Of a DNA stretch of 62,740 nucleotides, positions 6,157 through 58,225 are shown piece by piece. The first letter of the stretch is position 1, and each line of letters starts with the position of its first letter. This stretch comes from Nanobdellota archaeon (lineage in GTDB: Archaea; Nanobdellota; Nanobdellia; Woesearchaeales; GW2011-AR9): the NCBI GenBank assembly GCA_030697505.1, contig JAUYPX010000039.1, positions 1 through 62,740 on the forward strand. The letters are read 5' to 3'. The position numbers were made by a program, and so were the translations under genes. The notes beneath the pieces were generated by a model. The model saw only the letters and a program-made list of their open reading frames with translations, did no database searches and was not told the DNA's origin.

Positions 6157-7926
6157 TTAGCTATAATACCACTTATTCTCTGCCTTCTGCTCCCGATCTT
6201 TTACAGACTCAGGCTTGTTGATTCTCGGCCGATGCGAGCTTACATCCCGCCTCATAGTGATATCCAAGCTCTTCAGGAACAGATTCATCCCTTCTTCCAT
6301 CTTTAACGGGCCTTCTAAATGTCCTTCTCTGGCCGGCGTACCAGAGAACACGATCAGCTTGTTGGAGATATAATCAAGGAACATCAGATCGTGGTCAACG
6401 ACTAAGACAGTTACATCTCTTTCCCAGGCCAGATTTTTGATGATCTTAGAGATCAACAATCGCTGTTCGATATCCAAGTATGCTGAAGGCTCGTCCAGCA
6501 GGAAAAGCTGGGCATCTTGTGATAAACAGTGGGCAATTGCTACCCTCTGTAACTGTCCTCCAGAGAGTTCGGATAATTTTTGAGTGAATAATTTTTCTAC
6601 ATCTAAAGGCCGGATAAGCTGGTGTTGATATTTAACCGCAGCTTCATGCAGCAGTTCGCCGACGGTCATCTCTGAATCTGTTTCCAGATACTGCGGCTTG
6701 TAGGAAACTTTGACGTTGTCTCCGAGCGCGCCAGAATCAGGCTTGATCAATCCAGCCAGCAATTTGATGAAGGAAGTCTTTCCAATGCCATTCTCCCCTA
6801 AAATTCCGACAATCTCTCCTTTATACAATGCTCCTTCTTTTGCGGTAAGATTGAAATTACCTAATTTTTTAGTGAGTTTATTCCAGGAAGTAAGCTGCGT
6901 CCGCGAACTGGTCTTGACATCCTGCGCTTTTTCATATTTGATGGCATGGTCGCGGAAACGGACATTTTCTTCCTTCAAATACCCATCTAGAAAGGCGTTT
7001 ACTCCTTCGCGTGCATTTTTCACTCCGGAAACGATTCCAAATCCATTCTCGATCCCATACATAATATTGACCAAGTCAGTCATGTAATCAAAAATGATCA
7101 AGTCATGCTCAATGACCATGATGGCAGTATCGGGGGCAGCTAAGGATTCAATATATTTTGAAATTTTAATTCTCTGTTTGATGTCTAGATATGAGGTCGG
7201 TTCGTCAAACAAGTATAGGTTTGCTTTCTTGAGCACGGCAGCGGCGATAGCCACCCTTTGCAATTCCCCTCCTGAAATAGTGCTGATCTCGTTGTCAAGG
7301 ACCTTGACCAGATCTAATTCTAACGCTACCTTGCTGAGCAGGGAATCGGTGTCGATCTTGCTCAGCAGCTGCCGGACTGTTCCAGAGAATTGTTTTGGGA
7401 TCAAATCAACTTGCTGCGGCTTATAGGAGAGAGAAATTCCTCCTTTGCCTAATCTTTCCAGGAACTTCTGCGTTTCTGATCCCTTAAAATAATTGATGAC
7501 TTGTTTGAAATCAGGCATAGTTTTCCAATCTCCGAGGTTGGGCTTTATGATCCCGGACATAATTTTCAATGCCGTCGATTTCCCAATGCCGTTCCTTCCT
7601 AAAATTCCGGTGACTTTTCCAAACATCGGCGAAGGCAAGGAATACAATTCAAACAGATTCTCTCCATATCTATGTAACGGGGGTTTGTCTAACGTAGTTG
7701 GCAAGTTGATAATTTCAATCGCCCCGAAGGGGCATCGGTTTGGACAGATCCCGCAGCCGGTGCAGAGCATTTCGTCGATGCGGGCTTTTTTGTCAGGTTC
7801 GCCAGGATAGATGCAATCAGCGCCTGCCCTATTGACGGGGCACAGTTTAGCGCAAAGGTAGTTGCCGCACTCAGTAGGGTGGCATTTGTCCCGATGAATT
7901 ATCGCTATACGTTTTCGTGTACTCAT
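6157..7926 (-). CDS. abce1: ABCE1 / RNase L inhibitor (Rli1): ribosome-recycling ATPase with N-terminal 2x[4Fe-4S] domain
   Basis: CHPTECGNYLCAKLCPVNR and CTGCGICPNRCPFGAIEIINLP ferredoxin motifs. Two ABC domains (GRNGIGKST and GENGIGKTS Walker A; ISGGELQRVAIA and LSGGQLQRVAIA signatures). Confidence 0.95.
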   Translation of the reverse strand: MSTRKRIAIIHRDKCHPTECGNYLCAKLCPVNRAGADCIYPGEPDKKARIDEMLCTGCGICPNRCPFGAIEIINLPTTLDKPPLHRYGENLFELYSLPSPMFGKVTGILGRNGIGKSTALKIMSGIIKPNLGDWKTMPDFKQVINYFKGSETQKFLERLGKGGISLSYKPQQVDLIPKQFSGTVRQLLSKIDTDSLLSKVALELDLVKVLDNEISTISGGELQRVAIAAAVLKKANLYLFDEPTSYLDIKQRIKISKYIESLAAPDTAIMVIEHDLIIFDYMTDLVNIMYGIENGFGIVSGVKNAREGVNAFLDGYLKEENVRFRDHAIKYEKAQDVKTSSRTQLTSWNKLTKKLGNFNLTAKEGALYKGEIVGILGENGIGKTSFIKLLAGLIKPDSGALGDNVKVSYKPQYLETDSEMTVGELLHEAAVKYQHQLIRPLDVEKLFTQKLSELSGGQLQRVAIAHCLSQDAQLFLLDEPSAYLDIEQRLLISKIIKNLAWERDVTVLVVDHDLMFLDYISNKLIVFSGTPAREGHLEGPLKMEEGMNLFLKSLDITMRRDVSSHRPRINKPESVKDREQKAENKWYYS

Positions 7927-8810: not shown

Positions 8811-8830
8811 TCGCCCTTATAGCTCAACGG
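8811..8830 (+). other. Exact 20-nt duplicate of the 5' end of tRNA-Thr (acceptor 5' strand, D stem 5' strand and part of the D loop)
   Basis: TCGCCCTTATAGCTCAACGG at 8811-8830 is identical to 9100-9119. Confidence 0.9.
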
Positions 8831-9049
8831 GAAATGTCACGCCACGTGAAAACTGAAAGAATATCAGTTTTCTGTGCACGAAAACCAACAACGATTTGTT
8901 TTCGGCACTGAAATGAGATATTTTTCTCATTTCATGTGCAGAAATGTGATAGTTTTCGCATTTCTTGCATTTCCAAGGCGAGTGCGCTTCACACTCGAAG
9001 GGACAACGATCCCTTCGGTGTACCGATGGGATGATATCCCATCCAGTAC
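8830..9049 (+). ncRNA. Multi-hairpin structured RNA module, copy A (alpha, beta, gamma hairpins plus 3 further hairpins)
   Basis: Closing stem GGAAATG 8830-36 / CATTTCC 8968-74 encloses four hairpins. They are GAAAACTGA-aagaata-TCAGTTTTC (8848-72), GAAAACCAA-CAACGA-TTTGTTTTC (8880-8903), TGAAATGAGA-TATTTT-TCTCATTTCA (8909-34) and GAAATGTG-ATAGTTTT-CGCATTTC (8941-64). Three more follow: CGAGTG/CACTCG (8979-97), GAAGGGA-CAACGA-TCCCTTC (8997-9016) and GTAC..GATGGGA-tgata-TCCCATC..GTAC (9020-49). Confidence 0.6.
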
Positions 9050-9101
9050 TTCGTTCAGCAGCACAACAAATAAAAATAAACACATTTTTGTAACAATTAT
9101 C

Positions 9102-9193
9102 GCCCTTATAGCTCAACGGCAGAGCGACTGCTTCGTATATGCGTAATGCGTCAAAAGAGCAGTAGGCTGAGGGTTCAAATCCCTCTAAGGGCT
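9102..9193 (+). tRNA. tRNA-Thr(CGU) with a 20-nt intron at the canonical 37/38 position
   Basis: Acceptor GCCCTTA/TAAGGGC 7/7. D stem GCTC/GAGC, D loop AACGGCA. Anticodon stem ACTGC (9127-31)/GCAGT (9159-63). Loop TTCGTA + intron 9138-9157 + A. Variable AGGCT. T arm GAGGG-TTCAAAT-CCCTC. An AT-rich TATA-like box lies about 27 nt upstream (9070-9080). I could not draw a clean BHB by hand. Confidence 0.85.
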
Positions 9194-9195
9194 TT

Positions 9196-9284
9196 ACTTT
9201 CATCGTGAGGTCGAACGTAGAGAGTACCTCACTTGAGAACGATTCGCCTAGTGTAACTGGCGTTCAAATCCCTCTAAGGGCTTT
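9196..9284 (+). other. 66-nt element homologous to the tRNA-Phe T-loop intron, followed by an exact 23-nt duplicate of the tRNA-Thr 3' end
   Basis: GTTCAAATCCCTCTAAGGGCTTT at 9262-9284 is identical to 9173-9195. The intervening sequence contains TCGTGAGG-T-CGAACG-TA-GAGAG, compared with TCGTGAGG-AAA-CGAACG-A-GAG in 41974-42020. Confidence 0.75.
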
Positions 9285-10409: not shown

Positions 10410-10540
10410 GGAACACGAAAACAAACGACAATTTGTTTTCGGTTCTGAAATGTGGTAGTTTCAAGAAATGTGAAAAATATCCCATTTCTGAACTGAAAAT
10501 TTGATCTTTGTCAATTTTCATGTTCCGCATTTCATGAACA
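10410..10540 (+). ncRNA. Multi-hairpin structured RNA module, copy B (intergenic, no tRNA sequence nearby)
   Basis: GAAC..GAAAACAAA-CGACAA-TTTGTTTTC..GTTC (10411-45). TGAAATG (10446-52)/CATTTCA (10528-34) closes a domain with TAGTTT at 10456-61. That domain encloses GAAATG...CATTTC (10465-88) and TGAAAATT...AATTTTCA (10494-10520). Confidence 0.5.
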
Positions 10541-19435: not shown

Positions 19436-21553
19436 CTAAAAAGTGTTACTATCAATATACACTAACCTATAGGTTGAAGTATGGGATTGGCCGTTAGTGG
19501 CGGTTATCTTGATCAGGTACCAGCCAGGGGCCGCATCTTCAGGTAAAGCCACGTAAATGTTCCTATTCGCGCTCTTACCGGCCTTAAGGGTAAATTTACC
19601 GGTGCTTCCCCAGACGCCTAGATCATAGATTTTGGCCTGGACCTGCAGGTTTTTAACTTCCTTCTTACCATCATTATGTACGCGTACATCCACAAATAAG
19701 GTCTTTCCGGCTTCTATCTCATCAACTACATGCGCGGAAAGCAGGTCTATGTCGATAGGCTCCTTAGGCTCTTTTTGTGGCGGCATAAGGTTGCTTTCAT
19801 CGTTATCCCTAGGGTTGTACGTATCAACATCGCCAGCATCACCATCAGTGTGACAGCCCGGGTCGTTCATATCGGTCAATTTGTCATTGTCATTATCCTT
19901 GCCATCATTACACTGAGTGACAGGTTCATCAGTTTCATCGTTATCATTTTTATCTTTGCAACCGGGATCGTTAACTCTCGGATCGTTTCCATAATCGATT
20001 AACCCATCCCTATCGTTGTCTTTATTATCATTACATTGGGTCTCTGCTGGCTTATCATCAGACTCATCATCATCATCTTTATCTTTACAACCAGGATCAT
20101 CAGGAAAGTCTGTTTTGTGATCTGCATCATTATCCTTTTCATCATCACATTGCGGCTTTTTGACAGGGTTATCATTTGATTCATCATTATCGTTTGGATC
20201 ATAGGAGTGCATGTTTTCAGGATTTCCGTCAGTATGACAACCAGGATCATGCGCATCTACTGCTCCATCCTTATCATTATCCTCATTATCATTACATTGG
20301 GTCTCTGCTGGTTTATCATCTGATTCATCATTATCATTTTTATCTTTACATCCTGGATCATCAGGAAAGTCTGTTTTGTGGTCTACATCATTATCCTTAC
20401 CATCATCACACTGGGTCTTGTTATTTTCAGGCGCAGGGGTGATTACAATATACGCAGTCGCAAAATCTTGTCCGCCAAAATCATCATCTACCTGAAATAC
20501 AGTGGTATACACTCCATCAGAGGTAAAACCGTGGGTGAAGGTGAATTTTTGTGTATCTTTGTCAAAGGCATACGATTGCGCTGGTAGATTAGTACTAAAT
20601 ATACTGTATTTAAGCGCATCTTTATCCGCATCAATAGCATTGACAGTAAAGGCAGTATCTTCCCCTTGCTTGATGTGTTTAGGCTCTATAAAATCAAACA
20701 CAGGAATTCTATTTACATCATGCACATTGACATTTACAAATGCCCAATTGGAAGTTTTGGTATTATCGTTAACTTCAATAGCTTTGAATCTAAATAATGC
20801 TCTTTTAGTTAGGCTGGGATGCTGTACATGCTGTACATATTCGTAACCTGGAATCCAACTGAATGCGCCGCTATTCTCATTGAAGCTTAAACTTGCTTCT
20901 TGTACGGATCCCCACTTGAAACAGAAACCGCCGATGGAAGCAGTACATTCTTCAATCGCAAATTTCAATTTATCCTTTTCTTTATCGTTAGTAGAGATAG
21001 TGAAATGCAAGGTATCAGTTTCCAAGATATCATTATCATAATTAATAGTATTAATCTCAGGAGGAGTATCCTTACCGACAGGATTGATAGGAATAACTGC
21101 AGTTATAGGTGGAATAAAAATACTTATTTCTGGGAATACCTGCAAAAATAAACTGGTATCTACATATTCAGTGTTAGCATCTTTCACTTTGATGACCACT
21201 ATATATTGTCCAGCTTTGTTTTGATAATCTTTTGAAGTGATAGCGAATGTTTTGTACGCTAGAGTTTTTGATACATCTACATTTCCAGAGAAAATAGTGC
21301 TGGCAATCTTTCCGGTACTTACGCTGTTAAGAGTGACAGTTAATTTTACAGTTTTACTTGCAGTAGAACCAAAGTAACCGGTTGCAAAAGAAGCATCTTG
21401 GCCATAATTAACATAATATGATTTTGAGCCATCCTGCCATGCTAAATAATTATGTCCGCCATCCTGCTTCATCCAGTTGATCTGCGCAGTAGCGCTCACA
21501 GCGAGAAGCACAGTCAATAATAGTACACTAAGTAATTTGAATCCTTGTTTCAT
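19436..21553 (-). CDS. Secreted acidic protein with Ig/cadherin-like domains, six D-G/N-x-D-N-D (MopE/thrombospondin-3-like metal-binding) Cys repeats and a C-terminal CARDB-like domain
   Basis: Start moved to MKQGFKLLSVLLLTVLLAVSATAQ (signal peptide); the track start at 21649 would overlap the upstream gene. Repeats include QCDDGKDNDVDHKTDFPDDPGCKDKNDNDESD and QCNDNEDNDKDGAVDAHDPGCHTDG. Confidence 0.7.
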   Translation of the reverse strand: MKQGFKLLSVLLLTVLLAVSATAQINWMKQDGGHNYLAWQDGSKSYYVNYGQDASFATGYFGSTASKTVKLTVTLNSVSTGKIASTIFSGNVDVSKTLAYKTFAITSKDYQNKAGQYIVVIKVKDANTEYVDTSLFLQVFPEISIFIPPITAVIPINPVGKDTPPEINTINYDNDILETDTLHFTISTNDKEKDKLKFAIEECTASIGGFCFKWGSVQEASLSFNENSGAFSWIPGYEYVQHVQHPSLTKRALFRFKAIEVNDNTKTSNWAFVNVNVHDVNRIPVFDFIEPKHIKQGEDTAFTVNAIDADKDALKYSIFSTNLPAQSYAFDKDTQKFTFTHGFTSDGVYTTVFQVDDDFGGQDFATAYIVITPAPENNKTQCDDGKDNDVDHKTDFPDDPGCKDKNDNDESDDKPAETQCNDNEDNDKDGAVDAHDPGCHTDGNPENMHSYDPNDNDESNDNPVKKPQCDDEKDNDADHKTDFPDDPGCKDKDDDDESDDKPAETQCNDNKDNDRDGLIDYGNDPRVNDPGCKDKNDNDETDEPVTQCNDGKDNDNDKLTDMNDPGCHTDGDAGDVDTYNPRDNDESNLMPPQKEPKEPIDIDLLSAHVVDEIEAGKTLFVDVRVHNDGKKEVKNLQVQAKIYDLGVWGSTGKFTLKAGKSANRNIYVALPEDAAPGWYLIKITATNGQSHTSTYRLVYIDSNTF

Positions 21554-21555
21554 GT

Positions 21556-22620
21556 TTACTCCTGTCGAGGACAATAACCAAGATTTAGGCCGCCGATGGG
21601 ATAGGCGGCGCTGAAATTTGTTCTCAAACCAACTGTAGGCGTAAGACAAAAATCACCAAATCTGAATCGAGCACCTACCTGATTGTACATCAAGAATTGT
21701 GTATCGGTCTTGTCAGAGTGGTTAGAAATATTTGTTCCTTCCACCAGATTGCCATTAACATACTGTGCAGAGCTTTCACCGAATTTGCGGGTTACCCAGT
21801 CATGCATCACTCCGGCATGGCCTTCGAGGCCGAATCCAAAAGTATTATTTTCATTTGTAGCAACTTCGCCGCCTACAATAAGTCCAAGCCCCAGGCCTAA
21901 GGTCTGCAATGAATATTCATCAGAGCCCTTCATCACTAATTTTCCCGCTAAAGGGCCGTCAGCAGCAGGAACTGCGATATCTTGAGAAGTAGAACTTCCG
22001 TTTCCGTATCCGGACAAGGCGATGCCTAAATAAGGCAGCTTTTTTTTAGGTTGATACGTTAAATTGATACTTCCGCCATGCATGTTTCCATTAAATCCAG
22101 TTGTTTCATCTTTAGCGGTTCCTACATACAAGTATCCTACGCCGACATTTAATTTTCCATCAGAAGATTTTTTCTTGGTAGATGCTAGAGGAGCATCAGG
22201 GTCAGGTATTGGATTTGGCGTTTCCGGTGCTGCTTTCAGATCGCAGGGGAAATAGAACTTTTTGCTAGGATCTTTTTCTGCCAGATTGAGAATAGATTCT
22301 GCTTTCTCAAGTTTTCCGTCTTTAGTCCTTTCATCTGCTGGCAGATTGTATTTTTGAGGAAAGCCGTCTAATCCAACGATACAATAACCTGGTTTTTCTT
22401 CTACTGGTTGAATAAGCACAGTTACTTTTCCGCTATCAATTAATTGTTCCTGATGCAGCCAATCAGTATCATTATCTCTGCTGGTAACTGCTAAATTGTT
22501 TATTTTTTTTACTTCCACGATTTGTTCTGGTGTTGCTACTTTTGCTTCTTGTGCATAAGCAGTGTTTGCAATAAAAGTTAATGGGACAACTATTTTTCTT
22601 ACTATATTTTCAATTGTCAT
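21556..22620 (-). CDS. Secreted protein whose C-terminal ~190 aa look like an outer-membrane-type beta-barrel
   Basis: Signal VVPLTFIANTAYAQE. Alternating-hydrophobicity strands KLNVGVGYLYVG, GGSINLTYQP, YLGIALSGYGNG, LGLGLGLIVGGEV, TFGFGLEGHAGV, QFLMYNQVGARFRFG, TPTVGLRTNF and IGGLNLGY. Confidence 0.5.
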   Translation of the reverse strand: MTIENIVRKIVVPLTFIANTAYAQEAKVATPEQIVEVKKINNLAVTSRDNDTDWLHQEQLIDSGKVTVLIQPVEEKPGYCIVGLDGFPQKYNLPADERTKDGKLEKAESILNLAEKDPSKKFYFPCDLKAAPETPNPIPDPDAPLASTKKKSSDGKLNVGVGYLYVGTAKDETTGFNGNMHGGSINLTYQPKKKLPYLGIALSGYGNGSSTSQDIAVPAADGPLAGKLVMKGSDEYSLQTLGLGLGLIVGGEVATNENNTFGFGLEGHAGVMHDWVTRKFGESSAQYVNGNLVEGTNISNHSDKTDTQFLMYNQVGARFRFGDFCLTPTVGLRTNFSAAYPIGGLNLGYCPRQE

Positions 22621-24516: not shown

Positions 24517-24858
24517 ATGAGTAGAGGAGAAAGGCACCATAGATCCAGAAGGCATAGACGACTTCATCACACTCATAAACCTTCAATTGCCTCAAGATTT
24601 TATAGCATAAGGAGTTTTGTCAGGAGGCATCCTGTTTTTTCTTCGGTTACTAGTATTATTGCAGCTATTGTTTTAGTAAGGATTTCTCTTAGTGATACTT
24701 TATTTGGAAATAATGTTTCTGAATTTAGATTATGGTTTGTCTTTGGAGCTATAGTATTGGGAATTATTGGCTTAATTTCTTTGAAAGTTTGGTTTAAGAG
24801 GAGAGTTCCCCAGCATTTTACAAAACATGATAGGAACATTACTTGGAGAAATAGATAA
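24517..24858 (+). CDS. Small membrane protein with Arg/His-rich N terminus
   Basis: MSRGERHHRSRRHRRLHH..., then two TM segments. Confidence 0.4.
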   Translation: MSRGERHHRSRRHRRLHHTHKPSIASRFYSIRSFVRRHPVFSSVTSIIAAIVLVRISLSDTLFGNNVSEFRLWFVFGAIVLGIIGLISLKVWFKRRVPQHFTKHDRNITWRNR

Positions 24859-24865
24859 TCCTGAG

Positions 24866-24905
24866 CCACTCCCGCACTGGACAACCTTGGCTAGAATATA
24901 TAAAC
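24866..24905 (+). promoter_or_regulatory. Copy 1 of the repeated CACTGGACA-box + GGCTAGAATATATAAAC (BRE/TATA-like) element
   Basis: CCACTCCCGCACTGGACAACCTTGGCTAGAATATATAAAC differs from 41692-41731 at 2 positions. Confidence 0.6.
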
Positions 24906-25064
24906 AAGTTCTTAACAACAATTTAATGAAAAAGAGATGATACAAAACTTCCCATAAAATTCTTTCAGCTTTCAGCAGAGAAGAAATTTAAGGAGTTTTG
25001 CAAGAGTTGCTCTTTTTTGAAACTTCAAGTTTGTAAGTATGTAAAACTTGAAGGTGAATGAAAA

Positions 25065-25700
25065 ATGGAATTCAACGAAAATTTAGCCGAGATTGTAGGG
25101 ATAATGTTAGGAGATGGTGCTCTTTGGTTACAACCAGATTGTGTAAATAGTTATAAAATCATTGTGGCTTCTGATAAAAGAGAAAAAGCATGGCTTACGT
25201 ATGTTAAATCTTTGTTTGAAGCTTATTTTGAGGAGCCATTCAATATTAAAGAAATAAAATGTGGGTTGCATCTAACAAATTATTCCGCAAAAGTTGCACA
25301 TAAGTTGCTTAAAGCAGGATTAATCGAAGGAAATAAAGTTGAAAATGAAGTAACTATACCTTCTTGGGTACTAAAAGAGCGAAAATTATTAATAAGGACA
25401 GTTCAGGGCTTATTTGACACAGATGGTTGCGTATACAAAAAATATGATACTTATGCTCAGATAGAATTTAAGTTTGGATCTGAAATAACAACAAAATCTG
25501 TTCACAATGCTGTTAAGAGGTTAGGCTTTAATCCGACTAAAATCCAAAGACAGTATAATAGTTACACTGGTGGATTTCTTTGGAGATTCTATTTTTCCAG
25601 GCAAGCAGAAATTGAACTTTTCTTTACTGAGGTAACACCAAAGAATCCAAAGCATATGGAAAGATATAAAAGAATAAAAGGTGGGGCTGCTGGGATTTGA
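25065..25700 (+). CDS. LAGLIDADG homing endonuclease (double-motif)
   Basis: LAEIVGIMLGDGAL (motif 1) and VQGLFDTDGCVYKK (motif 2), about 100 aa apart. Confidence 0.8.
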   Translation: MEFNENLAEIVGIMLGDGALWLQPDCVNSYKIIVASDKREKAWLTYVKSLFEAYFEEPFNIKEIKCGLHLTNYSAKVAHKLLKAGLIEGNKVENEVTIPSWVLKERKLLIRTVQGLFDTDGCVYKKYDTYAQIEFKFGSEITTKSVHNAVKRLGFNPTKIQRQYNSYTGGFLWRFYFSRQAEIELFFTEVTPKNPKHMERYKRIKGGAAGI

Positions 25701-25936
25701 ATTCCTGAGTAACAATTTACTTGTTACTTCCCAGATCAAAAGCTGGCTTCAAGGAAAGTCTTGTCACTGCCTTTCGGCTCAACTCTCCATTACTGGAGGC
25801 TCCCATTGTCGGCGGTAGTTTATACCTCTGCCGGATTAAACTACAGCCCCACAAGAAGCTCAAAACCAAGCTCTTTTATTAATATTTTTGTTTTTGAATG
25901 GCAATTAATAAAAACCACTGCGTAATTCTTTCCTAC

Positions 25937-27031
25937 ATGATCATCTTAGACGGCAACTATGGCGAAGGCGGCGGCGCCTTAGTAAGAACTGCTTTAGCCT
26001 TATCAGCCTTGACCGGACAGGAATTCAAAGTAACTAACATCCGAGCAGGCAGAAGTGATTCCGGGCTGAAGGCCCAGCATCTTACTGCCATCAAAGCCTT
26101 GAAAGAATTCTGTCATGCGGAAACTAATAACGTCGAGATGGGTTCTACTGAACTGCATTTCAAGCCGGGAAAAATCAAGAAAGGGATTTATGATATAGAT
26201 ATCGGTACCGCCGGAAGTATTACTCTGCTGCTCCAAGCATTGATCCTTCCCAGCTTATTTGCGCCGGGAAAAGTCACCTTCAATATTACCGGCGGCACCT
26301 GCGGCAAATGGCAGGCTTCCGTCGATTACTTGCAAAATATTCTGCTTCCCTATCTTCATCGCTTCGTGGAAAAGATTGAGATGAAAATTCTCAAGCGCGG
26401 CTATTATCCCAAAGGACAAGGATTAATTCGTTTAGAAATCAGCCCTCGCTTTAATATCCACAAGTACGCATCATTTTCTGCGCTCTCGGAAGAGCTGCCT
26501 TTCAAAGTTCCTAAGATAATTTTACTTGAACAAGGCAAATTAGAACAGATCCGCGGCATCGTCAATGTCTCCGCAGAATTACAAGAAAAAGAAGTGGGAG
26601 AGAGAATCAAAAATGCGGTAGTTGGCGGCCTGAAACAGTATAATGTTCCGGTCAACATACGAGTAGAATATGCTAAAGCAGAAAGCATCGGTGGAGAAGC
26701 CTTAGTCTGGGGAGTTTTCAGCAACGGCGGAAAAGTGGATTATGATAATCCTGTTCTTCTTGCCGGCGATGCCTTGGTCGAGAAGGGAAAAAGTTCAGAA
26801 GAGATCGGCAAAGAGGCAGCAGAAGAATTGAAGAAACAGGTTGATATACATTCTGCTGTAGATCATCATCTGGCCGATCAATTGATCCAATTCATGGGAT
26901 TATTGCCTGGCTCTAAAATTAAAGCTGGAGAAGTAAGCAAACATGCCGAGACTAACATGTATGTGCTCGAGAAGTTTTTACCGGTTGCCTTTAAAGTTGA
27001 GAAGAATGTAGTGAGTGTGGAAGAGAAGTAA
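25937..27031 (+). CDS. rtcA: RNA 3'-terminal phosphate cyclase
   Basis: MIILDGNYGEGGGALVRTALALSALTGQEFKVTNIRAGRSDSGLKAQHL matches the RtcA N terminus. Start moved from 25898 to the ATG at 25937. Confidence 0.85.
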   Translation: MIILDGNYGEGGGALVRTALALSALTGQEFKVTNIRAGRSDSGLKAQHLTAIKALKEFCHAETNNVEMGSTELHFKPGKIKKGIYDIDIGTAGSITLLLQALILPSLFAPGKVTFNITGGTCGKWQASVDYLQNILLPYLHRFVEKIEMKILKRGYYPKGQGLIRLEISPRFNIHKYASFSALSEELPFKVPKIILLEQGKLEQIRGIVNVSAELQEKEVGERIKNAVVGGLKQYNVPVNIRVEYAKAESIGGEALVWGVFSNGGKVDYDNPVLLAGDALVEKGKSSEEIGKEAAEELKKQVDIHSAVDHHLADQLIQFMGLLPGSKIKAGEVSKHAETNMYVLEKFLPVAFKVEKNVVSVEEK

Positions 27032-27144
27032 TTATATTTGCAACACAAAAAGCTTTATAAATAACCAGCCGTCTGTAGCATTTCATGTACTTAAAAAAGC
27101 AAAAAGGCTTTTTTGGTACATCAAAAATCATGGAGTGATTTTTA

Positions 27145-27315
27145 ATGCAAGCAAAAGTATGTATATCTACCAAGAAACGAATTGACAACGACGAAGGATC
27201 AGTTACCTTTCTCTGTCCAAAATGCGGAGACTATGAAATCGTCCGCAGTTCTTTCGCCAGGGTAAATGGATTGAAATATACCTGCCCGAAGTGCGAGTTT
27301 ACCGGACCTAACTAA
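27145..27315 (+). CDS. 56-aa Zn-ribbon protein of the kind commonly found next to archaeal ef1b
   Basis: Manual translation gives MQAKVCISTKKRIDNDEGSVTFLCPKCGDYEIVRSSFARVNGLKYTCPKCEFTGPN. Below the track size cutoff. Confidence 0.6.
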   Translation: MQAKVCISTKKRIDNDEGSVTFLCPKCGDYEIVRSSFARVNGLKYTCPKCEFTGPN

Positions 27316-35382: not shown

Positions 35383-37170
35383 ATGGCAACCCGCAGGCCG
35401 ATCGTAACTGTACTCGGACATGTCGATCACGGCAAGTCCAGCATCTTAGACCGCATCAGAGGCACTGCTGTCGTTGCGAGAGAAGCAGGAGGCATCACTC
35501 AGGCTATCGGCTGCAGTATTGTGCCTATCAAAACTATCCAAACTATCTGCGGGCCGTTGCTGAATGCTATCAAATCGGGATTGACTATTCCGGGCTTATT
35601 GTTTATCGACTCTCCCGGGCATGCAGCATTCACCTCGCTCAGAAAACGCGGCGGGTCTTTGGCCGATATCGCTATCCTCGTGGTAGATATCAATGAAGGA
35701 TTTAAGCCGCAGACTACTGAATCTATTGAAATCCTGAAAGCAAATAAAGTGCCCTTCATCATCGCCGCCAACAAAATAGACCTTCTGCACGGCTGGAAGT
35801 ACGACTCCAAAAAATTCTTGCTGGATAACATTAATTCTTTTGACTACAATCTTCAGGGAAACTTTGAAAAGAAAATGTACGAGTTGGTTGCTCAAGTTGC
35901 TGAACATGGCCTGCAGGCAGAACGCTTTGACCGCGTCAGCGATTTCACCAAGCAGATCGCGATCGTTCCTGTCTCTGCCCATACTGGACAGGGAATTCCC
36001 GAACTATTGATGGTGCTTACCGGCTTGGCGCAGAAGTATCTGGAAAAGCAATTGGAGACAGAAGAGAAAGGCTACTGCGAAGGAACCATCCTGGAAGTGA
36101 AAGAAGAGAAAGGTTTAGGCATGACTCTTGATTGTATCATCTACAGCGGAAAACTGCGGGTGAATGATATCTTAATAATTGGCAATCTCGAACAGCCAAT
36201 CGTCACCAAGATCCGCGCGCTCTTGGAACCAGCAGAATTAACGGAGATGCGGGAGAAGAAAAGCAAGTTCCAGAATGTCAAAGAAGTCATTGCCGCGACC
36301 GGAGTGAAAATTTCCGCCCCCGGTTTGGAAACCGTCATCGCCGGCATGCCTTTACGCAGCTGCTCTGGAAAAGCGGAAGAAGTTGAAAAATTGAAGCAGG
36401 AAGTGCAGCAGCAGGTAGAAGAAGTCGTTTCTCTGGTAGAGGCAGAACAAGGAGTGATGATCAAAGCTGACACTATCGGCGGCTTGGAAGCCTTGCGCCA
36501 TCTGTTGGAAGAGAAAAATATTCCCATCGCTTCCGCTTCTTTAGGAGATATCACTAAAAAAGATCTGTCCAAGCTGGAATCATTAAAAGACAAAGATGAG
36601 TTTACCGGTGTTTTGATCGGCTTTAACGTCAGAGCAGCTCCGGAAATTCTTGAATATGCAAAGATCAAAGGATTAACTACTATCTTGAACGAAGTGATCT
36701 ACAAGATCATTGAAGATTATGAAAAGTATGTCGAAACTTTAAAGAAAGAGATCGAGCTGCGTGAGTTAGCCAATATTGTCCGCCCCTGCAAGTTTTTTGT
36801 GATGAAAGGGTACATTTTTCGACAGAGCAATCCTGCCATTGTCGGGGTAGAGATAGAAGTGGGCAGAATCCGAACTGCTGATCCGATCATGCGCGCGGAT
36901 GGGATGCGCGTTTCTACCGTCAAAAGCTTAGGCGAAGAGCAGGAATCATTAACCGTTGCCGAACAAGGCAAACAGGTAGCCATGGCCATGGATGGAGTGA
37001 CCATTGGAAGACAAGTTAAAGAAGGAGATTATCTCTATACCGATATTTCTGAAGAACATTTCAAAAAATTAAAAGAATTGAAGAAAAACCTTTCCAAGAA
37101 AGAGCTGGAAGTGCTGAAGGAAATTGCTGAGATTAAGCGGAAAGAAAACCCGGTATGGGGGGTGGGATAG
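35383..37170 (+). CDS. infB: Translation initiation factor aIF5B
   Basis: VTVLGHVDHGKSSILDRIRG, DSPGH, NKID. Four-domain length of 595 aa. Confidence 0.95.
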   Translation: MATRRPIVTVLGHVDHGKSSILDRIRGTAVVAREAGGITQAIGCSIVPIKTIQTICGPLLNAIKSGLTIPGLLFIDSPGHAAFTSLRKRGGSLADIAILVVDINEGFKPQTTESIEILKANKVPFIIAANKIDLLHGWKYDSKKFLLDNINSFDYNLQGNFEKKMYELVAQVAEHGLQAERFDRVSDFTKQIAIVPVSAHTGQGIPELLMVLTGLAQKYLEKQLETEEKGYCEGTILEVKEEKGLGMTLDCIIYSGKLRVNDILIIGNLEQPIVTKIRALLEPAELTEMREKKSKFQNVKEVIAATGVKISAPGLETVIAGMPLRSCSGKAEEVEKLKQEVQQQVEEVVSLVEAEQGVMIKADTIGGLEALRHLLEEKNIPIASASLGDITKKDLSKLESLKDKDEFTGVLIGFNVRAAPEILEYAKIKGLTTILNEVIYKIIEDYEKYVETLKKEIELRELANIVRPCKFFVMKGYIFRQSNPAIVGVEIEVGRIRTADPIMRADGMRVSTVKSLGEEQESLTVAEQGKQVAMAMDGVTIGRQVKEGDYLYTDISEEHFKKLKELKKNLSKKELEVLKEIAEIKRKENPVWGVG

Positions 37171-41595: not shown

Positions 41596-41731
41596 ATTTT
41601 GTTCACCACTGGACACCCACTGGACAAGTTCTCTAACTTCCAATGGTTCAAAATTTTAATGATTAAAGCTGTATTCTCAATATTTCACTATCCACTCCCG
41701 CACTGGACAACCCCGGCTAGAATATATAAAC
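41596..41731 (+). promoter_or_regulatory. Copy 2 of the repeated element: CACTGGACA boxes plus the BRE/TATA-like promoter of tRNA-Phe
   Basis: CCACTGGACAC, CCCACTGGACAAG and CGCACTGGACAACC boxes. GGCTAGAATATATAAAC has its TATA centre about 28 nt upstream of the tRNA 5' end at 41755. Confidence 0.65.
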
Positions 41732-41754
41732 CAGTTCAAAACAAAAAGAAATAA

Positions 41755-42033
41755 GCCCAGGTCGCTTAACCTGGTATAGCGAGAGCGTGAAAATCAACAC
41801 AAGAAATCAAACAAAGATTTGATTTCTGTGCAAAAATGTGATAGTTTTCACATTTTTTGCAACGATTGATTTTCTGCTCTGAAATTAAGTAGTTTCTTAA
41901 TTTCATGAGTCTGAAACTCCGGGCAAGGAGTCCAGAAAACTCTTTTGTCCTGACCGACTTTGTGGGTTCGAATAGTTTCCGAAACTCGTGAGGAAACGAA
42001 CGAGAGCGGATCTCGACTTTCCCACCCTGGGCG
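41755..42033 (+). tRNA. tRNA-Phe(GAA) interrupted by a 124-nt structured intron in the anticodon stem, a 21-nt 37/38 intron, a 47-nt T-loop intron and 13 unexplained extra nt before the T stem
   Basis: Acceptor GCCCAGG (41755-61)/CCTGGGC (42026-32) 7/7. D arm GCTT-AACCTGGTA-TAGC. Anticodon stem AGAG (41782-85) + T (41910) pairs with ACTCT (41939-43), 5/5. Loop CTGAAA (41911-16) + A (41938). T arm GTGGG-TTCGAAT (41962-73)...CCCAC (42021-25). A near-BHB can be drawn for the 37/38 intron: 4-bp helix TCTG 41910-13/CAGA 41933-36 flanked by AAA bulges. Confidence 0.75.
41786..41909 (+). ncRNA. Multi-hairpin structured RNA module, copy C (intron 1 of tRNA-Phe)
   Basis: GAAAATCAA (41789-97)/TTGATTTTC (41866-74) closes a three-way junction. 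The junction holds GAAATCAAA-CAAAGA-TTTGATTTC (41803-26) and AAAAATGTG-ATAGTTTT-CACATTTTT (41832-57), with CAACGA in the junction strand. TGAAATTAAG-TAGTTT-CTTAATTTCA follows (41880-41905). Intron ends are ambiguous by 3 nt because of a GAG repeat. Confidence 0.65.
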
Positions 42034-49576: not shown

Positions 49577-50800
49577 TTACCCGATCAACCCAGCCGCGTC
49601 ATCATCTTCTTCAATCTGGATTTTTTCAATTGCTGCAAGGAAATCGTTATGGGTGACATATCCCCGGTTTTCTCGGATAGCGCAGTAACCTGCTTCCGTA
49701 CATACTGCCTGAAGTTCAGCTCCGCTGAAATTTTCTGTCTTTGCGGCGACTTCCTTCCTGTTAACCCTGCGCAAATTCATGTTTGCAGTATGGACTTTGA
49801 GGATCTCTAATCTTCCTTCCTCGTCTGGCAGGCCCACTTCAATCAAGCGGTCCAATCTTCCTGGCCTAATGATGGCGGTATCGAGAATATCAGCCCTGTT
49901 GGTAGCGCCAATGATCTTAACATTATCCAAATGTTTGAAACCATCTATTTCGGCTAAAAATTGCATGAAGGTCCTGCTTACTTCTCTCTCTCCTGAAGTT
50001 CCGGTCTCCATCCTTTTTGAGGCTAAGGCATCAATCTCATCGATAAATACGATGGAAGGCGCTTTCCGTCTGGCCAAGGTAAAAATATCTTTGACTAATT
50101 TTGCTCCCTCACCGATGAATTTCTGCACTAATTCTGAACCGACTACTTCGATGAAAGTTGCATTAGTGCTGCTGGCCACTGCTTTTGCCAACAAGGTCTT
50201 ACCCGTTCCCGGGGGGCCGTACAGAAGCACTCCTTTAGGCGGTTTGATCCCTACATTTTCAAATAATTCTGGCTTGGTGAGTGGAAGTTCTATCACTTCT
50301 TTTATTTCACGCACCACTTCTTTTAATCCGCCTATGGAATTCCAATCTTCTTTTGGTTTTTCTACAATGACGTATTTCTCAACTTCAAAATTTTCATTCG
50401 CCTCAAATTTCTCTACGATATTGAGGGATTTTTGGTCAACTAAAGCAGCATCTCCGCTTCTGATATCCTTGACATGCTGGGCAATGTAGCAGTAGAATTT
50501 GTTTCCATTAGGAAGCTTGATGGCAGCTTTGTCGCCGTGTACGCTCACCACCTCAGCGACCAGCAGGGAAGGCTTCTTCAGATTGTTTAATTCATTATTG
50601 GTATTATTGAATAATTCACGCAAGATGGAGCTTTCCTGCTCCACTTTGATCAAGGTGCTAGAAATAGTCTTGTTCTCTTCTTCCAGTTTTTCTACCGTCT
50701 CAGCAAGGATTCGGTTCTCTTCTTCTAAATCAACCGCATTGACGGTCTGAGAATAGACCATCTTGTCATTTTGAGTTTCATTCGCGTTCGCTTTTGCCAT
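49577..50800 (-). CDS. pan: Proteasome-activating nucleotidase (AAA+)
   Basis: N-terminal coiled coil, GVLLYGPPGTGKTLLAKAVA, IVFIDEIDAL, GATNRADILD. Confidence 0.9.
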   Translation of the reverse strand: MAKANANETQNDKMVYSQTVNAVDLEEENRILAETVEKLEEENKTISSTLIKVEQESSILRELFNNTNNELNNLKKPSLLVAEVVSVHGDKAAIKLPNGNKFYCYIAQHVKDIRSGDAALVDQKSLNIVEKFEANENFEVEKYVIVEKPKEDWNSIGGLKEVVREIKEVIELPLTKPELFENVGIKPPKGVLLYGPPGTGKTLLAKAVASSTNATFIEVVGSELVQKFIGEGAKLVKDIFTLARRKAPSIVFIDEIDALASKRMETGTSGEREVSRTFMQFLAEIDGFKHLDNVKIIGATNRADILDTAIIRPGRLDRLIEVGLPDEEGRLEILKVHTANMNLRRVNRKEVAAKTENFSGAELQAVCTEAGYCAIRENRGYVTHNDFLAAIEKIQIEEDDDAAGLIG

Positions 50801-50892
50801 TATTTGTTCTTAGAAGGCAATTTTATATTTAAATTTACTGCCTGCTTTATTCGTCTTTATGCAAAAAATGTCAGGTCTTCAACTTCTAAAAT

Positions 50893-50959
50893 CTGCTTTT
50901 TCCACCAGTATATTTCACTGGTGGTGAATCAGTGATTTCACCTAGGCTGGAAAAAGCAG
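50893..50959 (-). ncRNA. Y-shaped hairpin element adjoining module D
   Basis: CTGCTTTTTCCA (50893-904)/TGGAAAAAGCAG (50948-59), 12 bp, encloses CCACCAGT/ACTGGTGG and GGTGAA/TTCACC. Strand inferred from module D. Confidence 0.4.
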
Positions 50960-50964
50960 GGTCG

Positions 50965-51203
50965 GAAAACTGACCAGAGCGAAGCATGAAATAAAGAAAC
51001 TACTTTATTTCAGCTCAGAAAAGAAATCGTTGTTTCTTTTCTTGAGCGAGTATGCATGAAATTTGAAAACTATCAAATTTCAGCACTGAAAACTAATCGT
51101 TGTTAGTTTTCATGTGCCGCTGGTCCACTCGGAAACAAAGTTTCCGGTGTGCCAGAGAAATCGCTGTTTCTCTGTGCATATTGGCCAGCGGTGGTCAGTT
51201 TTC
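50965..51203 (-). ncRNA. Multi-hairpin structured RNA module, copy D (239 nt, minus orientation), closed by a 12-bp stem that overlaps the stop codon of the transglutaminase-like gene
   Basis: Closing pair 50965-76/51192-203 (GAAAACTGACCA/TGGTCAGTTTTC on the minus strand). On the minus strand the hairpins are TGAAATAAAG-TAGTTT-CTTTATTTCA (50987-51012), GAAAAGAAA-CAACGA-TTTCTTTTC (51018-41), TGAAATTTG-ATAGTTTT-CAAATTTCA (51057-82) and TGAAAACTAA-CAACGA-TTAGTTTTCA (51087-112). CCGCTGG/CCAGCGG (51117-23/51185-91) encloses CAGAGAAA-CAGCGA-TTTCTCTG and GGAAAC-ttt-GTTTCC. Confidence 0.6.
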
Positions 51204-53174
51204 TTTGACGAATAAGTTAATCAGCCAGTTTGAAAGCATTTTTACCTTGTCAGCGAAAGAATTCCCTTCTGCTTTCACTATTATTTTTTGCTCGGTAGAA
51301 TAGGCCTTTCCCTGCCGATCCTCCCAGTTGGCAGTAATAATGAACTCAGTATTCCTACTCAAGCTTTGCCCATCGACAAGATAACTTATCTTTTCTTCCG
51401 GTCCTAAGCCGGGAATATCCCAAACACTCTTCGCTCCTGCGCCAGAAATAGCCAAGGCAAGATTTCGTGGCTCTGCAAAGGAATCTTTTTGGAGCGATAT
51501 TTCGATGGTTGGAGAATCGCCAAACTGGATCACTGGGGGATATTTCGCAGAAATAGTCAGCTGTGGAGTATCCAATACCGCATATTCCAGGGGCATTTTT
51601 TTCTCCACTTCCTTATTTTCCGCACGTACGATCACTTTCTGCCAGCCGGCATTTTCGCCCTTTACCGTGACTTCTATGTTTTTCTTTTGATTGATGGGCA
51701 GATCCGCGGTCTCGCAGGCATCTCCGACGCAGAAAGTAAGACTTTTAAAGTTTGTATTTCCGGTGTTCTTGATGGAACAGGTGACCGGCGCTTCTTCTCC
51801 CAGCATGATCTCTTTTTTATACTGGCAATCGAAAGTGATCTTTTGCGAGTAACTTTTCTCTTCATCTTGGATGCTCAGCTCCTCGATCTCTGCTTTAGAA
51901 TAGGTGTTTTTTCCCACTTGGGCGGTAAAAGTGTCATCAACAGAAGCATTTTTCTCAGAATAGATTCTGACCGGGAAAGTATAGACATAATTCTCCTGAA
52001 GATTTTCCGGTATTTTGACCATCCAAAAAGTTTCCCGCACTTCCCGAGGAGGGAGAAGGATATTTCTTCTGTTCCTGCCGATCACTTCTACTTCCTTGGG
52101 GGCAGCCAAATTAAGGGCGGTAGCAGCATAATAATGAGCATTATTCCTGACCACGCCTTTCACTAAATTGTAACTTCCAAAACCGACTTCATGGGCCAGG
52201 ATTTCCTGTTCCAGCTGGATCTGCTCAGGAACAGCAGCACCTTCTTTCTCAACCGTAACCTCAAGGCCTAATTTTCCTTTCTCCAATTTCACTCCATCGG
52301 AAACCCATTCATATTTTACTGCCGGTTCGGTGGGATCGAAACTGTCTCTCAAGCGCAGGTGGGTCACATCAACATAACCGTATTGATTGAAAGTGACATC
52401 AAAGCTTACCCAGCCTATCTCGGGGAAGTACACTTCCGCCCACCCATGCCCGGCCCAATTTGAACCGACCGCATTGACGACTTCTTGGCTGTTAGTATAC
52501 GAAATTCCGGAAACGAACCGTGCAGGGATCCCTAAGGATCTAGCCATAGCTACAAATAAGGAAGTCATCTCATCGCAGACACCTTGCTTATTCTGGAGAA
52601 CCCAGCTTCCTTTCTGAGAAGCGGCGCTGGTGACCGTGTTGAGATCATACTCAATATGTTCTTCCACCCAGCTGGCCAGATTGAATGCTACTTTGAACAG
52701 ATCGTCTTCTCCTTCTGCCAATTCAGCCGCTTTAGCGATCACTGCCGGATGATCGGAATCGATAGTTTCAGTCGGCTCTAGATATTGTTCTAATCCCTGC
52801 ACATCCTGCGGCCGCAAAGGAAAAGAGATTTTTTCTTTTACTGCCAAGCGCTGGTTCTGCGTCGCTATCAATGCAGCGTATCCGAACTTTTTCTTCTCAA
52901 TCTGCCCATCATTCCAGAAAAAAGAGACCATCTCATCTTTTACTATTCCTTCGCTGTCCCATAGGATAATCTTTTGTCGTTGACTTTCTTGGGGATAGAG
53001 AAACAGGTCGGCAGTAACTTCTTTTATATCGGCCCCGCTTTTGGTCGGCACTAACTCCAAAGAACCCTCTACGTTCAATCGTAATTCCAACGACTCCATG
53101 GAATAGAGATCATTTTCCGCAAAGGATGAAGAGACAAATAACATTAACAACAATAAAACAAGCCGCCATTTCAT
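51195..53174 (-). CDS. Secreted transglutaminase-like cysteine protease-fold protein with C-terminal CARDB-like domains
   Basis: Signal MKWRLVLLLLMLFVSSSFA. QGVCDEMTSLFVAMARSLGIPARFVSG, GHGWAEVY and FDVT form the Cys-His-Asp core. Confidence 0.8.
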   Translation of the reverse strand: MKWRLVLLLLMLFVSSSFAENDLYSMESLELRLNVEGSLELVPTKSGADIKEVTADLFLYPQESQRQKIILWDSEGIVKDEMVSFFWNDGQIEKKKFGYAALIATQNQRLAVKEKISFPLRPQDVQGLEQYLEPTETIDSDHPAVIAKAAELAEGEDDLFKVAFNLASWVEEHIEYDLNTVTSAASQKGSWVLQNKQGVCDEMTSLFVAMARSLGIPARFVSGISYTNSQEVVNAVGSNWAGHGWAEVYFPEIGWVSFDVTFNQYGYVDVTHLRLRDSFDPTEPAVKYEWVSDGVKLEKGKLGLEVTVEKEGAAVPEQIQLEQEILAHEVGFGSYNLVKGVVRNNAHYYAATALNLAAPKEVEVIGRNRRNILLPPREVRETFWMVKIPENLQENYVYTFPVRIYSEKNASVDDTFTAQVGKNTYSKAEIEELSIQDEEKSYSQKITFDCQYKKEIMLGEEAPVTCSIKNTGNTNFKSLTFCVGDACETADLPINQKKNIEVTVKGENAGWQKVIVRAENKEVEKKMPLEYAVLDTPQLTISAKYPPVIQFGDSPTIEISLQKDSFAEPRNLALAISGAGAKSVWDIPGLGPEEKISYLVDGQSLSRNTEFIITANWEDRQGKAYSTEQKIIVKAEGNSFADKVKMLSNWLINLFVKEN

Positions 53175-58074: not shown

Positions 58075-58082
58075 TGATTTTT

Positions 58083-58225
58083 ACTATCCACTCCCGCACC
58101 ATCCAACCCACTGGACAAACTCTCGTAAACCACCCTCTCCAGAAATTCTCATTTTTTAAGTTCTATTGCTGTAAAAATCATGGCCACTGGACACAGCGGA
58201 CAAATCCGGCTAAACTATATAAACC
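58083..58225 (+). promoter_or_regulatory. Copy 3 of the repeated CACTGGACA-box / TATA element (rearranged)
   Basis: ACTATCCACTCCCGCAC, CCCACTGGACAAAC, GCCACTGGACACAGCGGACAAATCCGGCTAAACTATATAAACC. Confidence 0.55.

Follow-up and report, generated by a model that had tools for sequence, protein, structure and literature searches.

The stretch analyzed here, referred to as the window, is a 62,740-nt (62.7-kb) contig of a Nanobdellota archaeon (JAUYPX010000039.1, assembly GCA_030697505.1) with a GC content of about 41%, which encodes ABCE1/RLI (6157-7926, minus strand), aIF5B (35383-37170, plus strand) and PAN, the proteasome-activating nucleotidase (49577-50800, minus strand). It also carries, at a density of about one per 15 kb, four hairpin-bearing loci, designated A to D, which an earlier description made without database searches (the sequence-only reading) had presented as a fixed RNA module of three hairpin types. 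All four are present at or near the coordinates given there, and the sequences it quotes for stems, loops and closing stems hold, while their interpretation is amended below on three points. An exhaustive scan of the window for hairpins combining a perfect 10-bp stem with a 6-nt loop returned nine (starting at 8909, 10416, 41802, 41832, 41880, 50987, 51017, 51057 and 51087), all inside loci A-D and none elsewhere, where about 0.1 per window would be expected by chance (estimated as 62740 x 4^-10). The RNA-fold z-scores against dinucleotide shuffles are -9.3 for A, -4.7 for B, -7.3 for C and -11.5 for D. Searches with Rfam at gathering and permissive thresholds, covering the window, the four loci and 19 related loci, yielded only tRNAs above the gathering score and nothing at the hairpin loci, the best sub-threshold match being a partial RT-16 in L091 (40.7 bits against a cut-off of 50); L-numbered loci are retrieved relatives outside the window. 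The family is recurrent, strongly structured and without an Rfam match, as the sequence-only reading had anticipated.

The basic unit is 60 nt long and consists of 5'-CA, a 26-nt hairpin, a central tetranucleotide G-N'N'-C, an inverted 26-nt hairpin and TG-3'. An alignment of all neighboring hairpin pairs, taken from the window and from loci that a single hairpin pattern had retrieved, gives the grammar X(4 nt)-A-stem1(10)-loop1(6)-stem1'(10)-X'(4)-stem2(10)-loop2(6)-stem2'(10)-T-X(4), in which X' is invariably G-N-N-C. Oriented with the unpaired T on its 3' side, the hairpin follows the consensus xGAAAW-NN-RR / TMGTTK / YY-NN-WTTTCx, that is, a 10-bp stem with a conserved GAAA/TTTC foot and variable loop-proximal pairs, capped by a 6-nt loop that reads TMGTTK on the hairpin's forward strand. 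The proposed alpha, beta and gamma hairpins are accordingly one hairpin in two orientations, paired into the 60-nt unit: alpha and beta belong to the same class, with the loop TAGTTT, and gamma is this class inverted, as the reverse complement of its loop CAACGA is TCGTTG, close to TAGTTT. In many units of other genomes, AAACTA, the exact complement of TAGTTT, replaces CAACGA at the gamma position. Because the gamma loop is the inverted form of the alpha/beta loop, the unit is an inverted pair of one hairpin, and its architecture is identical on both strands. The long closing stems previously assigned to the module belong to host elements in A and D, and to an interrupted outer hairpin in C. 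Several copies contain G.U pairs on the sense strand, and on the hairpin forward strand G.T pairs number 11 against 4 A.C mismatches, many of them representing one recurrent variant. Kissing loops were considered and rejected: AAACUA is complementary to UAGUUU, yet between CAACGA and UAGUUU only 4 of the 6 positions pair, and the inverted orientation explains the complementarity better.

To describe the family quantitatively, a covariance model (R1) was derived from 46 units, all non-identical; 43 came from other genomes and 3 from the window. It recovers five complete units in the window, with E-values of 1e-11 to 1e-17, together with partial and degenerate copies. In the alignment of these 46 units (A1), 96-97% of cells are paired, falling to 35-52% when the partner columns are slid, and the covariation score is 0.58-0.59 against 0.16-0.18 in shuffles, none of 500 of which reaches the observed value. 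The paired stem changes noted earlier are thus real, although part of the stem pairing arises by construction, since the stems belonged to the detection rule, and covariation in a palindromic repeat does not demonstrate the selection on RNA structure that had been read from it.

The pairs between X' and the flanks, in contrast, lie outside the detection rule. The central positions of X' pair with the 5' flank in 45/46 units at each position, with three pair types per column, and with the 3' flank in 46/46 and 45/46, with three or four; the outermost X'-flank position is unconstrained (GC in 21/46, other in 25/46). The search for further copies was extended to 61 distinct units, drawn from the window, 107 genome-assembly loci and 33 metagenome loci. 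Their 2-nt flank (NN) is the same on both sides in 58/61 and complements the central dinucleotide in 59/61 on the 5' side and 58/61 on the 3' side, where chance would give 1 in 16. The flanks follow the loose context R-NN-Y, with a purine at -3 in 48/61 and a pyrimidine at +3 in 50/61, and this preference is strand-symmetric, G.U pairs on the 3' side being matched in frequency by A.C mismatches on the 5' side. The identical architecture of both strands, the strand-symmetric flanks and the copies in a promoter-upstream motif (below) favor an element acting at the DNA level.

Comparisons of filled and empty sites reveal how the units are placed. In five independent comparisons every indel is exactly 62 nt, because a filled site holds the 60-nt unit plus the 2-nt direct repeat, which can be read as target plus element end. 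The sites concerned are a unit loop, a unit linker, a multicopy structured element, a promoter-upstream motif and a tRNA anticodon stem; in the case of the linker, insertion is deduced from its duplication only. In locus C, removal of 62 nt (41800-41861) restores the perfect hairpin GTGAAAATCAA-CAACGA-TTGATTTTC, and L062 has this outer hairpin intact at the orthologous position. Five paralogous and orthologous copies of the locus D host (L005, L008, L025, L064 and L088) lack unit 2 and show the empty site GCTC-GCTT. Among paralogues of the D host in the metagenome-assembled genome (MAG) JACPNA01, an extra unit with flank TG and center GCAC is present in L015, L064 and L088 and absent from L005, L008 and L025, where the empty site reads CCACTGGTGATCGCC. 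In L072 and L120 a TATA-like box is preceded, at a distance of about 30 nt, by the motif CCCGCAC^TGGACA with a unit inside it, and a partly deleted copy occupies the motif in L095; it is uninterrupted in the window (24866 and 41692), L062 and L124.

Units likewise interrupt one another. In the fifth comparison, hairpin 2 of locus B is split after TAGTTT by a nested unit, and in both locus A and L101 a unit sits in the linker of another unit, with that linker duplicated. Nested copies occur in both polarities, window locus B and L101 providing antisense examples. The multi-hairpin modules are therefore products of nesting and adjacency of units, as the filled/empty indels and duplicated linkers indicate. 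The outer-plus-nested composite that lies within a tRNA gene in locus C recurs in L123 outside any tRNA context. The copies of the window are nearly identical to those in MAGs labelled Nanoarchaeota or Woesearchaeota, for example L104 (JAUSJN01), where unit 2 of the D host is 100% identical to its window counterpart although the flanks are only ~80% identical, and unit 1 occupies the same site with both stems different; this pattern indicates turnover or homogenization. Given the near-identity of the copies, the window most likely comes from a Woesearchaeales-type member of the DPANN, a group of ultra-small archaea. The features of the four loci are summarized in the table.

Hairpin units and associated features of loci A to D in the window
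Feature	Position	Strand	Details
Locus A, outer unit, hairpin 1	8847-8873	+	degenerate 9-bp stem GAAAACTGA/TCAGTTTTC, loop AAGAATA
Locus A, inner unit	8875-8938	+	CA...TG at 8877-8936; 84 bits, E 8e-17
Locus A, inner unit, parts			hairpin 1 8879-8904 (CAACGA); center GCAC 8905-8908; hairpin 2 8909-8934 (TATTTT)
Locus A, inner unit, flanks	8875-8876 and 8937-8938		TG; nested in GTGC linker of outer unit
Locus A, outer unit, hairpin 2	8940-8965	+	AGAAATGTGA TAGTTT TCGCATTTCT, one U.G pair
Locus A, GC-rich double hairpin of host RNA	8996-9043	+	CGAAGGGA CAACGA TCCCTTCG / GATGGGA TGATA TCCCATC; 26.7 bits
Locus B, unit	10411-10539	+	flanks GAAC...GAAC; center GTTC 10442-10445
Locus B, hairpins			hairpin 1 10416-10441 (loop CGACAA); hairpin 2 10446-10461 + 10525-10534, split
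Locus B, nested unit	10462-10522		61 nt; flanks TT, center GAAC
Locus C, insertion	41786-41909	+	124 nt; in anticodon stem of tRNA 41755-42033
Locus C, outer unit			hairpin 1 41788-41797 + 41866-41875, loop CAACGA 41860-41865; center GCTC 41876-41879; hairpin 2 41880-41905
Locus C, nested unit	41800-41859		flanks CA, center GTGC
Locus D, unit 1	51053-51116	-	element 51055-51114; flanks CA; 88.5 bits
Locus D, unit 1, sequence			TGAAAACTAA CAACGA TTAGTTTTCA / GTGC / TGAAATTTGA TAGTTT TCAAATTTCA
Locus D, unit 2	50983-51046	-	element 50985-51044; center GAGC; flanks CT; 84.7 bits
Locus D, degenerate double hairpin	51125-51179	-	AGAGAAA CAGCGA TTTCTCT / CGGAAAC TTTG TTTCCG; 27.6 bits
Locus D, host element	50887-51209	-	~320 nt; GTCAAAGAAAAC...GGAAAAAGCAGATTTTA; supplies 12-bp closing stem

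Outside these loci, a weak double hairpin with GTAC linkers at 27086-27150 scores 25 bits with R1. The GC-rich double hairpin of locus A carries the loop motif of the family on unrelated stems and has a homologous region in L045.

The search with an 18-base pattern that produced the 107 genome-assembly loci gave palindromic stems in 38 matches from 37 loci, and a partner hairpin with a CAACGA-type loop turned up beside the searched hairpin although it was absent from the query. By label, the only palindromic exception to an archaeal origin is L013, a lone hairpin on a Patescibacteria contig; the remaining palindromic loci come from MAGs labelled Woesearchaeota, Nanoarchaeota, Nanoarchaeia, "archaeon" or, in the European Nucleotide Archive, "uncultured Methanosarcinales". 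We suspect mislabelling under the last name, since one of the loci that carry it, L062, has the promoter motif of the window. Full-grammar units are present in 21 of the 33 metagenome loci, several of them from groundwater. Six matches on viral contigs all lack palindromic stems and are chance matches, and a viral origin was rejected; no true family member was found there. A CRISPR array was likewise rejected, as the stems differ between hairpins, 4-nt linkers join them and there are no spacers. Readings of the CUGA/GAAA strings as C/D-box, H/ACA, K-turn or hammerhead-like motifs failed on inspection by eye, the boxes being incomplete and lying inside perfect stems.

In the loci examined, no unit interrupts any open reading frame (ORF), and no split ORF that would be made whole by removing 62 nt was found; units are tolerated solely in non-coding DNA. 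Most copies reside in structured, apparently transcribed non-coding regions, and copies within transcribed regions are presumably transcribed. In 8-kb samples around the loci, the "solo" hairpins found are all parts of nested or degenerate units, and there is no autonomous insertion sequence with the same ends; an autonomous version or parent of a miniature transposable element with inverted repeats (MITE) was rejected, as no hairpin pair brackets an ORF.

Several of the host regions are repetitive themselves. The host element of locus D is also present in L005, L008, L015, L025, L064, L088, L104 and L121 and is multicopy in other DPANN MAGs; six of its copies lie in contigs sampled from one Woesearchaeota MAG. 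The element is conserved and structured, contains no ORF and matches no Rfam family, and it may represent either a non-coding RNA gene in several copies or a non-autonomous element of larger size. Two further conserved, structured non-coding groups, one comprising L036, L042, L068, L092, L087 and L011 and the other L020, L030, L045, L069, L096 and L099, are ~200-330 nt long, with long closing stems, T-rich tails in some members and units at fixed positions. Neither group has an Rfam match even at E < 0.5, and they may be DPANN non-coding RNAs new to Rfam. A promoter-like block, CCACTCCCGCACTGGACAACC..GGCTAGAATATATAAAC, is repeated in the window at 24857-24921, 41683-41747 and 58079-58225, with extra copies of CACTGGACA, upstream of a tRNA, a LAGLIDADG ORF and a gene at 58326, and is also found in L062, L072, L120 and L124; the hairpin unit has repeatedly inserted at its GCAC. 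The LAGLIDADG endonuclease ORF behind this block is free-standing (25065-25700) and is followed by RtcA, the RNA 3'-phosphate cyclase (25898-27031). Elsewhere in the window, five tandem repeats of 312-318 nt (328-1893; 63-81% identity to the reference copy) are likely to encode a repetitive protein continuing past the left end, and interleaved short repeats at 19884-20422, inside a 737-aa ORF (19436-21649, minus strand) and GAT-rich in reverse complement, suggest a repetitive acidic protein segment.

The copies in tRNA genes require separate consideration. The placement of copy C within a tRNA gene, as proposed earlier, is confirmed: the gene, at 41755-42033, has the acceptor stem GCCCAGG/CCTGGGC, is of class II and is interrupted three times: by the 124-nt nested insertion, by a canonical intron that follows CUGAAA and is ~21 nt long, and by a T-loop intron of 47 nt (41974-42020). 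It was detected by neither ARAGORN nor Rfam. In L062 and L124 the corresponding position, after nt 30/31 of the anticodon stem, is occupied by one unit only, and once the 62 nt are stripped ARAGORN calls a class-II tRNA(UAA) with a canonical intron in both. Under the splice model of these two genes, the window tRNA has the anticodon GAA, despite its long variable arm and G73, and it may be a mutated or unusual tRNA. The central helix of the bulge-helix-bulge (BHB) motif of the canonical intron is CUUA/UAAG in L062 and L124 and CUGA/CCAG in the window, with a compensatory U-A to G-C change at 34, and every stem of the exons shows compensatory differences among the three genes. On account of these changes the three genes look functional, in which case the unit must be removed from the RNA; the alternative for any tRNA copy is that the gene is dead. 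In a relaxed scan, which allowed bulges of 2-4 nt and a helix of 3-5 bp, as in a strict one, no BHB at the unit borders is common to the three genes, and a BHB intron was rejected there. As a positive control, the canonical intron was found in L062 and L124 and missed in the window tRNA, where the helix has a mismatch. The mobile intron or palindromic element suspected by the sequence-only reading pointed in the right direction, its intron part failing the BHB test at the unit borders.

A second tRNA gene adjoins locus A. ARAGORN names the gene at 9102-9193 Arg(TCG), while the anticodon stem ACUGC/GCAGU places CGU as the anticodon, followed by a 20-nt canonical intron, and it looks like Thr(CGU). 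The tRNA 5' fragment to which copy A had been described as fused is indeed a 20-nt duplicate of the 5' end of this neighbor, 290 nt upstream (8811-8830 = 9100-9119); the last 21 nt of the gene are duplicated 97 nt downstream (9262-9282). With both ends duplicated, long direct repeats enclose each of two segments, the locus-A composite (8831-9099) and a piece of 76 nt (9186-9261), and a composite resembling locus A in L101 is bracketed by a 14-nt repeat. These direct repeats may reflect a second, different insertion mechanism. In addition, the string CGTGAGG..CGAACG..GAGAG is common to the T-loop intron at 41974-42020 and to 9205-9235, downstream of this second tRNA, which suggests a second family of related intron-like insertions.

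We interpret the loci, with moderate confidence, as copies of a very small, non-autonomous mobile palindromic DNA element of the REP/REPIN type (repetitive extragenic palindromes and their paired, hairpin-forming derivatives) or MITE type, guided by an internal tetranucleotide. In IS200/IS605 ends and REPs, the transposase binds the hairpin and a tetranucleotide at the hairpin foot pairs with the cleavage site (PMC6006769). By analogy, the central tetranucleotide would be a guide that base-pairs with cleavage and target sites, and the unit, mobilized in trans, would move by single-strand "peel-and-paste" transposition, as with the HUH enzymes of the IS200/IS605 type and with REPs and their RAYT (REP-associated tyrosine transposase) enzymes. 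Peel-and-paste is favored by the extra-helical base, the tetranucleotide 5' of the foot, the complementarity at the borders, the inverted pairs, the extragenic location and the strand-symmetric flanks. We infer that the mobile form would be a single-stranded 62-nt circle that adopts the shape of a 24-bp rod capped by two hexaloops. Targets of the R-NN-Y type would be chosen by its central G-N'N'-C, and linkers and loops of copies already in place would be among them; since the unit's own linker and loops offer such sites, units would insert into one another and build arrays.

Several observations weigh against this interpretation. Among the 30 ORFs of the window no transposase domain was found, and phmmer searches for TnpA, using two approximate IS200/IS608 seeds, gave no match in ~1.0 Mb of loci; the latter test is weak because trans-acting RAYT-like genes are single-copy and need not adjoin the units. 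IS200/IS605 elements have both hairpins on one strand and produce no duplication. In most transcribed contexts inspected, the loop order CAACGA-then-TAGTTT is sense-oriented, although the antisense nested copies of locus B and L101 exist. Moreover, three further lineages keep copies at the same anticodon-stem position, with compensatory changes in the exons; for such persistence the unit has to be taken out of the RNA, and an RNA-intron model suits the tRNA copies better. RAYT classes have also not been reported in archaea (PMC6006769).

That model would make the unit a new kind of mobile RNA intron, excised from tRNA and structured host transcripts as a 62-nt circle (a rod of 10 bp, bulged A, 4 bp, bulged U and 10 bp) and spreading by reverse splicing at R-NN-Y sites that pair with the central tetranucleotide, followed by reverse transcription and recombination. 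We regard it as unlikely, yet it accounts well for the shared nt 30/31 position in the window, L062 and L124 with compensatory exon changes, and for the normal class-II tRNA with a canonical intron that exact removal of 62 nt leaves behind. The complementarity of center and flanks would make the circle perfectly paired, G.U pairs on the sense strand and the majority of copies in structured, apparently transcribed regions are in keeping with an RNA, and unidentified disrupted tRNA genes have been reported in DPANN lineages (PMC5829648). Against it stand the BHB scans, strict and relaxed, in which the three tRNAs share no motif at the unit borders although the canonical intron shows one, the units in the promoter-upstream motif of L072 and L120 with the partly deleted copy in L095, the nested copies of both polarities and the strand-symmetric flank preference. 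No reverse transcriptase is seen in the window, and units never split ORFs, which a general intron could do. A broader formulation, which we put forward with considerable doubt, is that the unit represents a new class of minimal replicator, a 62-nt rod-shaped circle of RNA or single-stranded DNA with its own 4-nt guide that enters and leaves guide-paired sites and behaves in RNA as a non-BHB intron, which would explain DPANN tRNA genes missed by current tools.

The persistence of the CAACGA/TCGTTG loop on different GC-rich stems of host RNAs (8996-9017, L045, L051, L073 and L078), the very stable folds and the promoter-like and T-rich sequences flanking several host regions would suit arrays that are functional parts of structured non-coding RNAs, with UMGUUK/MAACKA loops binding protein and local duplication adding copies. 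This is improbable in view of the exact 62-nt presence or absence at unrelated sites, a tRNA stem and DNA upstream of a promoter among them, and of the identical or near-identical units in unrelated contexts; the rule that flanks complement the center would also be unexpected under local duplication. Duplex-DNA operators of a dimeric regulator, or an accident of an AT-rich genome, are very improbable: locus B does lie in a divergent promoter region and units in L072 and L120 are near TATA boxes, but the inner, non-conserved stem positions covary and keep the palindrome, which duplex binding does not need, and both the excess of perfect hairpins (nine against ~0.1) and the covariance-model E-values, down to 1e-17, exceed what an accident would give.

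Returning to the mobile palindromic DNA element, its features can be compared with those of known families. As in REP/REPIN-RAYT and IS200/IS605 systems, a short hairpin carries directly 5' of its foot a tetranucleotide matching the cleavage or target site, and the single-stranded circular intermediate of REP/IS200 systems would fit a 62-nt rod (PMC6006769, PMC3116915). Here the tetranucleotide is G-N'N'-C, directly 5' of the forward hairpin on either strand, and the 26-nt hairpins, with five complete units and remnants in the window, fall in the range of multicopy short hairpins of the REP/REPIN type (~20-65 nt). Like REPINs and bacterial interspersed mosaic elements (BIMEs), the units are two inverted hairpins, extragenic, multicopy and clustered. 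Unlike REP/IS200 systems, they show plain Watson-Crick pairing, one central guide for both hairpins, a 2-nt repeat at both flanks, precise nesting and one site inside a tRNA, and no Y1 transposase was found in the window ORFs or the ~1.0 Mb of loci; where IS200/IS605 insertion involves no duplication and a fixed target tetranucleotide, the same 2 nt stand on both sides and vary between copies. With regard to MITEs, terminal inverted repeats (CA(T)GAAA...TTTC(A)TG) combine with a 2-nt repeat and 62-nt indels. The Correia/NEMIS elements, MITEs of Neisseria, are similarly small and non-coding, with terminal inverted repeats (here CATGAAA...TTTCATG), a 2-bp duplication and hairpins when transcribed. 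In Correia elements, which descend from a DDE-type insertion sequence, the duplicated dinucleotide is always TA, whereas it is variable here and set by the element's own center, and the element is far smaller (60 nt).

Among archaeal elements, the haloarchaeal palindrome-associated transposable elements (PATEs), compared by description only, are hundreds of bases long, with ends resembling the IS1341/IS200 type. For mitochondrial double-hairpin elements, we know of no description of a guide-like center/flank rule or of exact nesting. PATEs nonetheless share an archaeal host, a non-coding nature, palindromic ends and presumed mobilization by IS200/IS605-type enzymes (PMC3119063), and the double-hairpin elements (DHE) of Allomyces mitochondria and the hairpin elements of sponge mitochondria are alike as tiny two-hairpin units spreading through intergenic regions, introns and RNA genes, with unrelated sequences and hosts (PMC2800124). 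The BHB tRNA introns of Thermoproteales, for which transposition has been proposed, resemble the tRNA copies as short structured insertions at a non-canonical tRNA position with relatives at other sites, and disrupted tRNA genes are numerous in DPANN lineages (PMC5829648, PMC4090602); unlike such archaeal introns, the units have no BHB at their borders, and most copies lie outside tRNA genes, some of them upstream of promoters. Full-text literature searches found no description of an archaeal element of this kind, the literature on double-hairpin elements giving mitochondrial cases only, and no such element seems to have been described before. Its unusual features are the self-complementary guide rule, the exact self-nesting and the persistence in a tRNA anticodon stem.

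The units constitute a repeat family specific to a poorly known, uncultured archaeal group and shape its non-coding DNA. The complementarity of center and flanks provides a clean signature, open to testing, of target choice directed by a guide in an element only 60 nt long; should an HUH enzyme move it, archaea would have their first REP-like system, and otherwise the mechanism would be new. The units also hide tRNA genes: the gene at 41755-42033 and its relatives were missed or mis-called by ARAGORN until the 62-nt units were stripped, and the window copy was missed by Rfam as well, which bears on the incomplete tRNA sets reported for DPANN genomes (PMC5829648). Moreover, a double hairpin without a BHB that is kept in the anticodon stem across several lineages raises the question of a new route of RNA excision.

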